A stretch of DNA of 57,328 bases from Candidatus Parcubacteria bacterium (GTDB lineage: Bacteria; Patescibacteriota; Minisyncoccia; SURF-38), in the NCBI GenBank assembly GCA_003599335.1, contig QZJN01000010.1, positions 1-57,328 on the forward strand, read 5' to 3'. Position numbers and translations under genes: made by a program. Positions 48,188 through 49,570 of this stretch are shown here, in pieces. The notes below the pieces were generated by a model, which saw only the letters and a list, made by a program, of their open reading frames with translations, had not been told where the DNA came from and searched no databases. Every line of letters begins with the position of its first letter. The first letter of the stretch is position 1.

Positions 48188-49105
48188 TTGTTCTCTTCAT
48201 TTGTAAAAGGACTTCCCGGAAGAGAAGCTCCTGGTTTCAAATTCTTCTTCCTGCAGGACAGAAATCCTCTTGCAAGAAGGAGAAAAAGAAGACACGTAGG
48301 CGCTCCAAATGAAGCTATGTGGCGTTTGCACTGGCGATTGATCCAGTGGCTTCGCAGCCCTGGTCTCAACCGAGGACGGCGCTATTCAACCGGATGCGGC
48401 CATCTCGATTCCCCAAGACGCAACATCTTGAGACATAGAGGCAACCGATTCCTATACTTGCTCGATATCAAAGATGCTTACCCAAACGTAAACCTAGATA
48501 AGCTTGCAAAAATCCTCTACGAACTTGCAATACATCTCGTTCCCGAGGATAAAATCAAGCTCTTCCTCAAGCTTTTCTGTTTTTCCCCAAATGGCGGCCT
48601 GGTTGTTGGAGGGCCTGCCTCTCCCGAGCTTTTCAACCTTTATGCCGAGTCCTTGCTTGATCATCCTCTCGGCGTTTTCTGCCACAAGCACGGCATAACT
48701 TTCTCCAGATACCTTGATGATCTGACTTTTTCCTGCTCAACACCAATCGGCAAAAGAAAACGGCTGGAAATAAGAAAGATCATTCTCAAGGCTGGTTTCA
48801 ATATCAACCACAGCAAAGCCAAGGTGGTTGATCTTCGCAAGGGTCCGGTGGTGATAACCGGGATAGGGCTAAACCTAAACGGAAAGCTTTTTGTCCCTGG
48901 GCATTATCGCCGCAGAATTGACGCCGTGTTTCACAAAGCAGCCAAAAATCCTAAAGACCTGAAATATCTGGCCATTGGGATGCACGGCCTGTTTCGATCG
49001 GTCATACCCCGCGGCGAGCTAAACTCTCGCAGCGAACTTCGCACCATAAACCGGTTCAGGAGCTTTCTCTCTGCAAACCGCAACAAAGAGGCATTAACAC
49101 GATGA
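48188..49105 (+). CDS. Retron-like reverse transcriptase
   Basis: RHVGAP (RT1), NILRH (region X-like), LDIKDAYPNV, LVVGGPASP, SRYLDDLTFS (YLDD at 48710-48721), GFNINHSK, VITG (region Y-like); SD AAAGGAGG favours TTG 48188 over GTG 48179. Confidence 0.9.
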   Translation: MFSSFVKGLPGREAPGFKFFFLQDRNPLARRRKRRHVGAPNEAMWRLHWRLIQWLRSPGLNRGRRYSTGCGHLDSPRRNILRHRGNRFLYLLDIKDAYPNVNLDKLAKILYELAIHLVPEDKIKLFLKLFCFSPNGGLVVGGPASPELFNLYAESLLDHPLGVFCHKHGITFSRYLDDLTFSCSTPIGKRKRLEIRKIILKAGFNINHSKAKVVDLRKGPVVITGIGLNLNGKLFVPGHYRRRIDAVFHKAAKNPKDLKYLAIGMHGLFRSVIPRGELNSRSELRTINRFRSFLSANRNKEALTR

Positions 49106-49130
49106 ACAAAAATGTTGGTGCCTCTTTTTC
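49085..49130 (+). terminator. Terminator overlapping the RT stop codon
   Basis: AAAGAGGCATTAACA...TGTTGGTGCCTCTTTTT. Confidence 0.65.
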
Positions 49131-49132
49131 AT

Positions 49133-49161
49133 TTGCAAAAATTTCTCATTTTTAATATATT
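49133..49161 (+). promoter_or_regulatory. Sigma70-type promoter for the putative ncRNA
   Basis: TTGCAA-17 bp-TATATT; predicted start ~49167 coincides with the first stem. Confidence 0.6.
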
Positions 49162-49166
49162 AGCGC

Positions 49167-49570
49167 CAGCAGGCTCCGAATATCTCAGTGGCCCCATCGC
49201 CAACAGCGGTGGGGACAGCCGGAGGTTAGGGCTGGTTTCGGGTTTGTCGGACCTGCTGAGAGGAAGTAAAAACTCTGCCATTCAGATGACAGAGAGGGAT
49301 TCTCGGGAACGAGATACCCCATCAGATTCAGGCACGCGTCCGCTCTCGCAGACGTCGCGACGTTCCATGCGCCACCAGGCCATCGGACGTCGGAACCGCG
49401 CTCGCGCCGCCACGACATCTGGGCGGCCTCGCACGTGGCACACGTCTTTGAAGGGGGGAGCTGCTGCCGAATCTCAGCGGAAAGCTTTCAAACCCGGATA
49501 CTTAACCTCTGGCCCGCTGCAATCGTACCAATTGATAAGCCGTAGCCGTTTTTTGGCTACGGCTTTCTTT
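49167..49570 (+). ncRNA. Putative ~400-nt structured ncRNA next to the RT (no family recognised)
   Basis: GC-rich island with at least 8 visible helices, its own promoter and a terminator (AAGCCGTAGCC/GGCTACGGCTT + TCTTT, 49537-49570). Confidence 0.65.

Follow-up and report, generated by a model that had tools for sequence, protein, structure and literature searches.

We analysed a window of 57,328 nucleotides from Candidatus Parcubacteria bacterium (contig QZJN01000010.1, forward strand; positions are those of this whole stretch), in which a gene for a retron-type reverse transcriptase (RT) is followed by a gene for a structured non-coding RNA (ncRNA). Retrons are usually described as a single transcript in which the RNA comes first and the RT second, together with an effector. 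The RT gene (48188-49105, + strand) encodes 305 aa with an intact YLDD motif and was identified from the list of open reading frames (ORFs), from Pfam, PADLOC, NCBIfam and PDB matches, and from a family alignment. Depending on the start codon, the ORF runs from 48179 or 48188 to 49105 and encodes 305-308 aa; the ORF list gives GTG 48179, but TTG 48188 is the likely start because it fits the N-termini of relatives better and because the GTG overlaps the Shine-Dalgarno (SD) sequence AAGGAGG (48173-48179, + strand), which is read directly from the sequence 8 nt 5′ of the TTG. The protein matches Pfam RVT_1 (4.8e-15), and in a 30-sequence alignment of the family N82, H86, Y178, D180, D181 and G228 are invariant. 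These residues belong to the NxxxH, YxDD and xTG/xNG motifs, which in the window RT read NILRH, YLDD and ITG, such that both the retron motif and the catalytic YxDD are present; in most relatives xNG replaces VTG. Upstream of the RT lies an HtrA-like gene (47006-48052), and the 135-nt gap between the two (48053-48187) contains the SD and the intrinsic terminator of the HtrA-like gene (48084-48109, + strand; −14.6 kcal/mol, z −6.5), which occupies much of it. The covariance model of the RNA core described below has no match in this gap.

Downstream, the end of the RT gene and the start of the RNA gene are closely packed. A terminator-like hairpin (49085-49127, + strand; −19.5 kcal/mol, z −4.0) has a 15-bp stem and a 13-nt loop, in which the RT stop codon TGA lies, and precedes a U-run; a consensus terminator scan missed it because its loop exceeds 8 nt. 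Next comes a sigma-70-like promoter, TTGCAA-17-TATATT (49133-49161, + strand), which matches at 9/12 positions and is conserved in the downstream-clade alignment, and from which we place the RNA start near 49168. The ncRNA gene, the putative equivalent of a retron msr-msd, would thus span ~400 nt (49168-49570, + strand), with both ends predicted from the promoter and from an intrinsic terminator consisting of a 12-bp stem and a U-run (49537-49565, + strand; −21.8 kcal/mol, z −7.2). The segment 49150-49575 folds at −188.8 kcal/mol (z −6.7), none of 100 shuffles being as stable, and its GC content is 60-64% versus ~40% in the flanks. An Rfam scan of the RNA gave zero matches at gathering thresholds and only noise at E ≤ 10. 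An earlier note on this DNA had described an RT with retron-type signatures, too little room upstream for an msr-msd, a terminator over the RT stop, and then a promoter, a GC-rich, densely paired ~400-nt segment and a second terminator. Motif conservation and profile matches, the contents of the 135-nt gap, and the scans and folds bear out this description in every point checked, and the comparison with Rfam that the note had proposed places the RNA in no known family.

Within the predicted RNA, minimum free energy folds show a composite closing helix, whose a1-like 5′ strand (49186-49261, + strand) comprises three segments, 49186-49191, 49219-49231 and 49253-49261, that pair with 49472-49519. 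Its innermost part is a 9-bp helix between 49253-49261 and 49472-49480, which emerged from one of two scans for ungapped helices; the outer helices extend to 49186 and 49519, with their 3′ strand at 49481-49519 (+ strand). Beside the inner helix is GAGAGG (49258-49263, + strand), which in alignments is the window's version of a UGAGG-type box and which we consider a candidate site of the priming (branching) G. The closing helices enclose two msr-like core hairpins, hairpin 1 (49273-49294, + strand) and hairpin 2 (49296-49319, + strand), each with compensatory changes at 8/8 pairs, and a structured, GC-rich (68%) insert (49320-49471, + strand), which is hypervariable at the same position in relatives and is a candidate msd-like template. 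The 3′ edge of the insert is marked by UCUCAGCGG (49472-49480, + strand), the window's version of a distal, a2-like CCUCAGCG-type box that was assessed in relatives (see below).

To what class does the RT belong? A PADLOC profile scan gave 56 matches, and the best 25 of these are retron RT models throughout, led by II-A (1.7e-26) and followed by III-A, VI, X and Ec107-like. The best score is 91 bits, and II-A, III-A, VI and X lie within 12 bits of each other, so that none of the retron types I-XIII in PADLOC gives a strong, clearly best score. Among NCBIfam models retron_St85_RT ranks first (6.8e-25, 88 bits, under its cut-off), ahead of the group II (1e-7, 31 bits), Drt3a (19.8 bits) and Drt2 (4e-4, 19.7 bits) models. 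There are 12 PDB sequence matches at E ≤ 0.001; the best 11 are named retron or retron-family RTs (Ec83, Ec78, Ec86, Ec67; E ~1e-11 to 1e-9), and the twelfth is an unnamed RNA-directed DNA polymerase (5.5e-06). In PADLOC, NCBIfam and PDB alike, retron RTs match the enzyme better than other RT classes do, and these scores identify it as a predicted retron-class enzyme outside all typed retron groups. Its ~100 homologues share 26-48% identity, and among the matches listed the source names are Patescibacteria-group or generic; the family was found only in Patescibacteria-type metagenome-assembled genomes (MAGs), a few of whose records are labelled otherwise, and in metagenome contigs. It is nearly absent from viral contigs, with one distant match at 25% identity.

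Other kinds of RT-containing element were considered and rejected. A diversity-generating retroelement is not indicated, as no template/variable repeat was found and the direct repeats in 46000-53000 are only tRNA-sized or at chance level. For a group II intron, the group_II_RT_mat score is 31 bits against a cut-off of 300, and the sole Rfam intron match (29.9 bits against 140) is on the opposite strand, over the terminator. A DRT2-like system is opposed by a Drt2 score of 19.7 bits against a cut-off of 390 and by an insert without a clear stop-free template signal.

The evidence that ties the RNA to the RT comes from relatives. Searches with nhmmer and blastn of the RNA against the first 68 RT loci yielded one 34-nt match, upstream of the RT in locus L009, and this locus and the window share two adjoining hairpins that differ by compensatory changes. 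We seeded a covariance model of the two-hairpin core (49273-49319 in the window) on these two sequences and rebuilt it twice. On 69 sources the model has 29 matches at E ≤ 1e-3, all of them in the window or in Patescibacteria RT loci, each at most ~570 nt from the RT gene and 28/29 on the RT strand; by comparison, 0/28 non-Patescibacteria retron loci match at E < 0.01. A set of 80 metagenome loci contributed 43 further matches at E ≤ 0.01. Across 19 core matches all 16 of the 16 pairs show compensatory change and 95.6% of cells are paired, a level that 0/500 shuffles reach and that falls to 44-66% when the register is slid. The window's core has the top score of all copies, at 75-101 bits. When the 426-nt RNA was compared by BLAST with 60 related genomes, no match lay beyond the genome of the window itself. 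These comparisons identify the downstream RNA as the predicted cognate RNA of the RT family, in keeping with the earlier note, which had paired the two and had proposed a search for a covarying RNA beside homologous RTs. The only match at E ≤ 1e-3 opposite its RT's strand (L036:3817-3888, − strand) lies 65-136 nt upstream of the RT start; it may represent either an inverted copy or two hairpins that match by chance.

We then asked where the core lies relative to the RT. Merging 111 loci at ≥90% RT identity gave 94 clusters, the window not counted, and only + strand core matches at E ≤ 1e-3 were tallied. The core is upstream of the RT in 32/94 clusters, downstream in 14/94 and on both sides in 1/94 (L017); it is undetected in 47/94, of which 36 have ≥400 nt of sequence on each side of the RT and 11 have short flanks. 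Five loci are counted among the clusters with no core or short flanks, namely L036 (− strand match), L024, L091 and L115 (E 0.004-0.011) and L026 (a far − strand match). The distance to the RT is stereotyped: an upstream core is found at −160 to −410 and, where there is a second one, this is at −430 to −570; a downstream core is found at +80 to +163, as in the window (+153), and a second one near +430. In L017 the cores flank the RT at 632-694 and 1677-1750; the upstream one, at 25 bits, extends over the position where the RT gene is predicted to start and may be left over from an upstream arrangement. The clusters with long flanks and no detected core, for example L025/L026, L029/L031 and L038-L042, are more divergent members by RT.

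In a FastTree of 76 RTs, the downstream state takes 5 changes, and well-supported branches force at least 2. (Left out of this tree were L008 and L137, with a stop in the translated range, L124, L135 and L139, shorter than 200 aa, and redundant members and short-flank loci.) The downstream loci form one clade of 9-10, a second of 3, and scattered singles that include the window. An earlier quick tree is poorly resolved and agrees on the position pattern; the window RT is a lone lineage in both trees, neither of which resolves its place. With 14 downstream clusters and at least 2 switches in the tree, the downstream order is a recurrent variant within one RT family and not a one-off. The unusual order that the earlier note had pointed out is therefore real here, where the RNA comes after the RT, separated from it by a terminator and a promoter-like site, and not in an upstream, co-transcribed position, but 32 of the 47 relatives with a detected core retain the canonical upstream position.

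The RNA is also not always single. In 7 RT clusters (L009, L004, L027, L006, L016, L095 and L101) two core copies lie on the same side of the RT, 100-360 nt apart, for example at L009:109-185 and 381-453, L004:3462-3540 and 3815-3893, and L027:3712-3788 and 3813-3881. In L009 and L004 the inserts differ between the two copies, and in L009 the second one comes with a TTGACA-17-TATATT site of its own. These double-copy loci suggest that one RT serves two ncRNAs.

Beyond the core, the wider architecture of the RNA recurs across the family. The core sits inside a junction closed by long-range helices in 9/9 folded loci. In family alignments a UGAGG-type box is conserved 5′ of hairpin 1, and a CCUCAGCG-type box is conserved 3′ of the variable insert, whose length ranges from 54 to 240 nt; a YCAGYG pattern follows 37/51 cores, as opposed to 26% of random windows. 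For a given 5′ box, the distal box of the same locus is a better pairing partner than the distal boxes of other loci (Wilcoxon p 3.8e-5); this result and the recurrent distal box support the inner helix. RNAalifold of seven members of the main downstream clade gives compensatory changes at 13/58 pairs, with the closing stem and the base of the insert compensatory and the insert itself hypervariable; for three members of the second downstream clade it gives 21/78, the long outer stem included. Other tests of the a1/a2 pairing were less clear, as two scans for ungapped helices were noisy or non-significant and duplex folding of long flanks gave mixed z-scores. Taken as a model, the layout is the msr/msd/a1-a2 plan set out for retrons in the relevant passages of PMC7736814: an adjacent ncRNA with msr-type hairpins, a long msd-type structure and a1/a2-type pairing, the last of these with one cruder helix test negative.

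The RNA genes also carry signals of their own. A promoter-like site lies 15-170 nt 5′ of the core in 11/17 downstream-type and 14/35 upstream-type copies versus a background of 17%, and a terminator-like site lies 3′ of the core in 14/17 and 18/35 copies, respectively, versus a background of 36%. Across the main downstream clade, the stretch from the RT stop to the RNA retains conserved −35 and −10 elements, TTGAMA and TAYAAT. The RNA genes of this family thus look like transcription units of their own, which would explain their changeable position. It is from these promoter- and terminator-like sequences, and from their conservation in relatives, that we infer an 'independently transcribed' and 'trans-acting' RNA, as the earlier note had worded it.

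We also asked whether the RNA is present where the RT is not. In 150 genomes of the same class, surveyed with an RT profile at E ≤ 1e-8 and with the RNA model at E ≤ 1e-3, the RT profile is positive in 8 genomes and the RNA model in 11. Only the two best-scoring RNA matches adjoin a family RT (G014, with the RNA downstream of the RT, and G055, at 24.7 bits, with the RNA upstream), and these are true RT-RNA pairs. The remaining 9 score 21-32 bits, coincide with terminator hairpins or AT-rich stretches or lie within ORFs, and have no family RT within ~2.5 kb; we judge them false on these features. The earlier note had held that finding the RNA without the RT in relatives would count against the pairing, and among these 150 genomes there is no convincing copy of this kind. 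It had said the same of RT homologues lacking the RNA, and here the outcome is divided, with the core found in 47/94 clusters and undetected in the other 47.

We conclude that the locus is most probably a retron of an untyped, Patescibacteria-specific RT clade, whose ncRNA is a separate gene after the RT and not part of its 5′ leader. In the mechanism that we propose, the RT mRNA would end at the hairpin that spans the RT stop codon, and the RNA would be made from its own promoter, starting near 49168 and ending at the terminator at 49537-49565. Pairing of 49186-49261 with 49472-49519 would close a junction that holds the msr-like hairpins (49273-49319) and the msd-like insert (49320-49471). 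The RT would bind the two conserved hairpins in trans, priming would come from the 2′-OH of a G within GAGAGG, the conserved box that adjoins the inner helix, and copying of the insert would begin beside the UCUCAGCGG box to yield a branched msDNA (multicopy single-stranded DNA) of ~100-150 nt. The role of such a product would probably be phage defence or another msDNA-dependent function, with an effector that is encoded elsewhere or absent. The system is less exotic than the earlier note held: its 'atypical RT-ncRNA system' does have a real partner RNA, but this appears to be the family's ordinary retron-style ncRNA and not a new kind of partner. Two twists set it apart, namely an autonomous, movable and sometimes duplicated ncRNA gene, and an effector-less setting in minimal genomes.

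Several observations weigh against this conclusion. First, the typed retron models give at most 98 bits for the three family RTs scanned (80-98 bits for the relatives), but fragments of Bacteroidota retron RTs of only 166-198 aa reach ~170 bits against the same models; in addition, the alignment of 30 relatives shows no conservation of the 'A' in NAxxH. Second, the RNA core is undetected in 47/94 relatives, 36 of which have at least 400 nt of flank on each side; in these, either the RNA has diverged beyond the model or none is carried. Third, the pair counts come from alignments fitted to the model and are thereby biased towards structure, although the margin is large; the 9 off-target matches in 150 genomes show, in addition, that E-values of the model overstate significance when whole genomes are searched. 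Fourth, a simple ungapped-helix test of the a1/a2 pairing was non-significant (2/52 with p ≤ 0.05), and in one downstream clade the 5′ box can alternatively pair with sequence just 3′ of hairpin 2, such that the topology of the junction is not settled. Finally, no effector was found, which leaves a defence role unsupported here.

The effector question was addressed at the window and across relatives. We found no associated effector gene or fused domain at the window or among 41 loci. Searching the relatives' loci with the window's neighbouring ORFs by tblastn gave nothing below E 0.19, and in all-against-all clustering of neighbouring ORFs from the 41 loci the largest cluster (5/41) is an amino-acid permease; the other shared neighbours that we checked are housekeeping genes (acylphosphatase, DnaX, a sigma factor). 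Small two-helix membrane ORFs are not enriched by relatives' RTs (4/25 near versus 4/25 in control zones). The earlier note's remark that no recognisable effector is adjacent thus extends to the family, with no family match for the window's small ORFs and no conserved neighbour in 41 loci.

A bolder version of this conclusion, which we regard as possible but put forward only tentatively, is that these systems form a Patescibacteria retron class of their own, with an autonomous, movable and sometimes duplicated ncRNA acting in trans. RT and RNA would then be the whole system, lacking a protein effector, and either the msDNA or the RT-msDNA complex would itself be functional or a partner would be found elsewhere or in the host.

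Rather unlikely is a retron-related RT-ncRNA system that works differently, in which the RNA is the template or scaffold for an unbranched, protein-primed or repetitive cDNA, as in DRT systems, and which is complete without an effector. Such a system would fit the absence of a conserved neighbour gene in the 41 loci, where the neighbours checked are housekeeping genes, an RT that fits no retron type, and an RNA that is a free-standing gene, sometimes present twice; a downstream ncRNA is, moreover, known for DRT3 from the pertinent section of PMC8632793. However, the RT is far nearer to retron RTs, with Drt2 and Drt3a at ~20 bits versus cut-offs of 390 and 200, and the combination of closing helices, two short hairpins and a variable insert is the retron layout as given in the corresponding part of PMC7736814. 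The inserts also lack a clear stop-free template signal: frames free of stops occur on the + strand in 21/28 loci versus 19.9 expected, which is no excess, and on the − strand in 21/28 versus 15.2 expected, a slight excess, and five loci of the main downstream clade have no stop-free frame on either strand.

We consider it improbable that the locus is a decaying or recently transferred remnant, a former retron that is non-functional in this genome. A foreign origin is suggested by a GC-rich island (~48200-50550, 50-64% versus ~40%) that contains the RT, the RNA has no effector beside it, and the window RT is a lone lineage in both trees. On the other hand, the reading frame of the RT is uninterrupted and keeps all catalytic and family-invariant residues, the SD, the promoter and both terminators are intact, no other copy of the RNA core reaches the score of the window's (75-101 bits), and the predicted RNA fold is very stable. 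Least probable by far, and largely refuted, is the idea that the downstream segment is unrelated to the RT, being a housekeeping or regulatory RNA or, through the 158-aa ORF at 49112-49588, a protein gene, since an ORF open across the whole segment and the segment's own promoter-like site and terminator are offset by zero Rfam family matches, by the empty BLAST search in 60 related genomes, by a 158-aa ORF without a Pfam match and with tblastn matches to 111 related loci only at E ≥ 0.25, by an open frame that is expected by chance at 68% GC (71% of insert shuffles are stop-free in some frame), and by a core that covaries as RNA and tracks the RT in 47 independent relatives.

The island itself also holds three orphan ORFs. 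The first (49656-49898, + strand; 80 aa) has its own promoter-like site (49575-49603), an SD and a terminator (49920-49949), and no family match. The other two form a translationally coupled pair on the − strand (50020-50530), also with no family match: one (50273-50530) encodes an 85-aa protein in which two helices are hydrophobic, and its stop overlaps GAGGAGG, the SD of the other, an 80-aa ORF (50020-50262). This pair lies behind a promoter-like TTTACA-17-TAGGAT (50595-50567). Look-alike searches for both 80-aa ORFs gave no usable lead, and neither family scans nor neighbour comparison showed a link between the three orphan ORFs and the retron. Together with the RT and the RNA, these ORFs make up the GC-rich island (~48200-50550, 50-64% in a ~40% GC genome), which is flanked by the HtrA-like gene and a DUF3105 gene and for which flanking repeats were not found in 46000-53000; its composition suggests acquisition from a higher-GC donor. 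Single tRNA genes lie around the island at 46051-46122, 46559-46630 and 52326-52397, and a four-tRNA cluster lies at 28868-29208.

Comparison with known systems helps to place the family. Like canonical retrons such as Ec86/Eco1, it has an RT of ~300 aa with N..H, YxDD and xTG motifs whose best matches are retron RTs, and an adjoining ncRNA on the same strand with short hairpins, a variable long insert and end-to-end closing helices. The lack of an effector also has precedent: in the relevant passages of Mestre et al. 2020 (PMC7736814), stand-alone msr-msd-RT cassettes are known from RT clades 2 (Ec107/Eco5 branch) and 11, and some described branches are likewise without an associated effector. 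Unlike canonical retrons, the ncRNA gene follows the RT here and in 14/47 core-positive relatives, the RNA has its own promoter- and terminator-like elements outside the RT leader, the closing helices are of unusual length, two RNA copies are present in seven relatives, the RT matches no typed model well (≤98 bits), and the family was found only in Patescibacteria-type MAGs (a few records labelled otherwise) and metagenome contigs. Thus, as far as sequence can tell, the family is a retron family by its RT and its RNA; it departs from the rule of an upstream RNA in one transcript and from the presence of an effector, and it fits no type.

More distant systems share single features. DRT3, as presented in the pertinent section of PMC8632793, combines UG3 and UG8 RTs with a structured ncRNA that is encoded downstream of the UG8 gene and needed by the RT; the downstream position of a structured ncRNA is common to both, but DRT3 has two UG-class RTs, whereas here there is a single retron-class RT (Drt3a 19.8 bits versus a cut-off of 200). 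DRT2 consists of a UG2 RT and an ncRNA with no protein effector, as described in part of PMC12039810, and thus resembles our family as a two-part RT and ncRNA module without a conserved protein partner; it differs in RT class (Drt2 19.7 bits versus 390) and in the stop-free template signal, which is not clear here. The Type XI-like lineages are described in a 2026 SPIRE survey (Toro 2026, PMC13712802) as divergent retron RTs from metagenome mining with de novo predicted msr/msd-like RNAs and flexible gene order. All three features recur in our family, but the lineages in that survey carry WYL or DnaB_C accessory proteins, and their flexibility concerns the accessory gene and not the ncRNA. The strings 'Patescibacteri' and 'CPR' are absent from the survey's main text. 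A word search of the open-access literature found neither a paper on retrons of Patescibacteria or the candidate phyla radiation (CPR) nor one that describes a retron whose ncRNA lies downstream of the RT, although such RTs may be listed in the supplementary tables of retron surveys.

The family comprises at least 94 distinct RTs in ultra-small genomes, and its RNA has the character of an independent gene that can lie before or after the RT. If it is true that the RT makes msDNA from an RNA that is naturally encoded in trans, co-transcription of RNA and RT would not be required in nature. Compact RTs of 300 aa with a defined two-hairpin recognition module would then also be usable for retron engineering, and their presence would raise the question of what job an effector-less retron performs in a 0.69-Mb genome.

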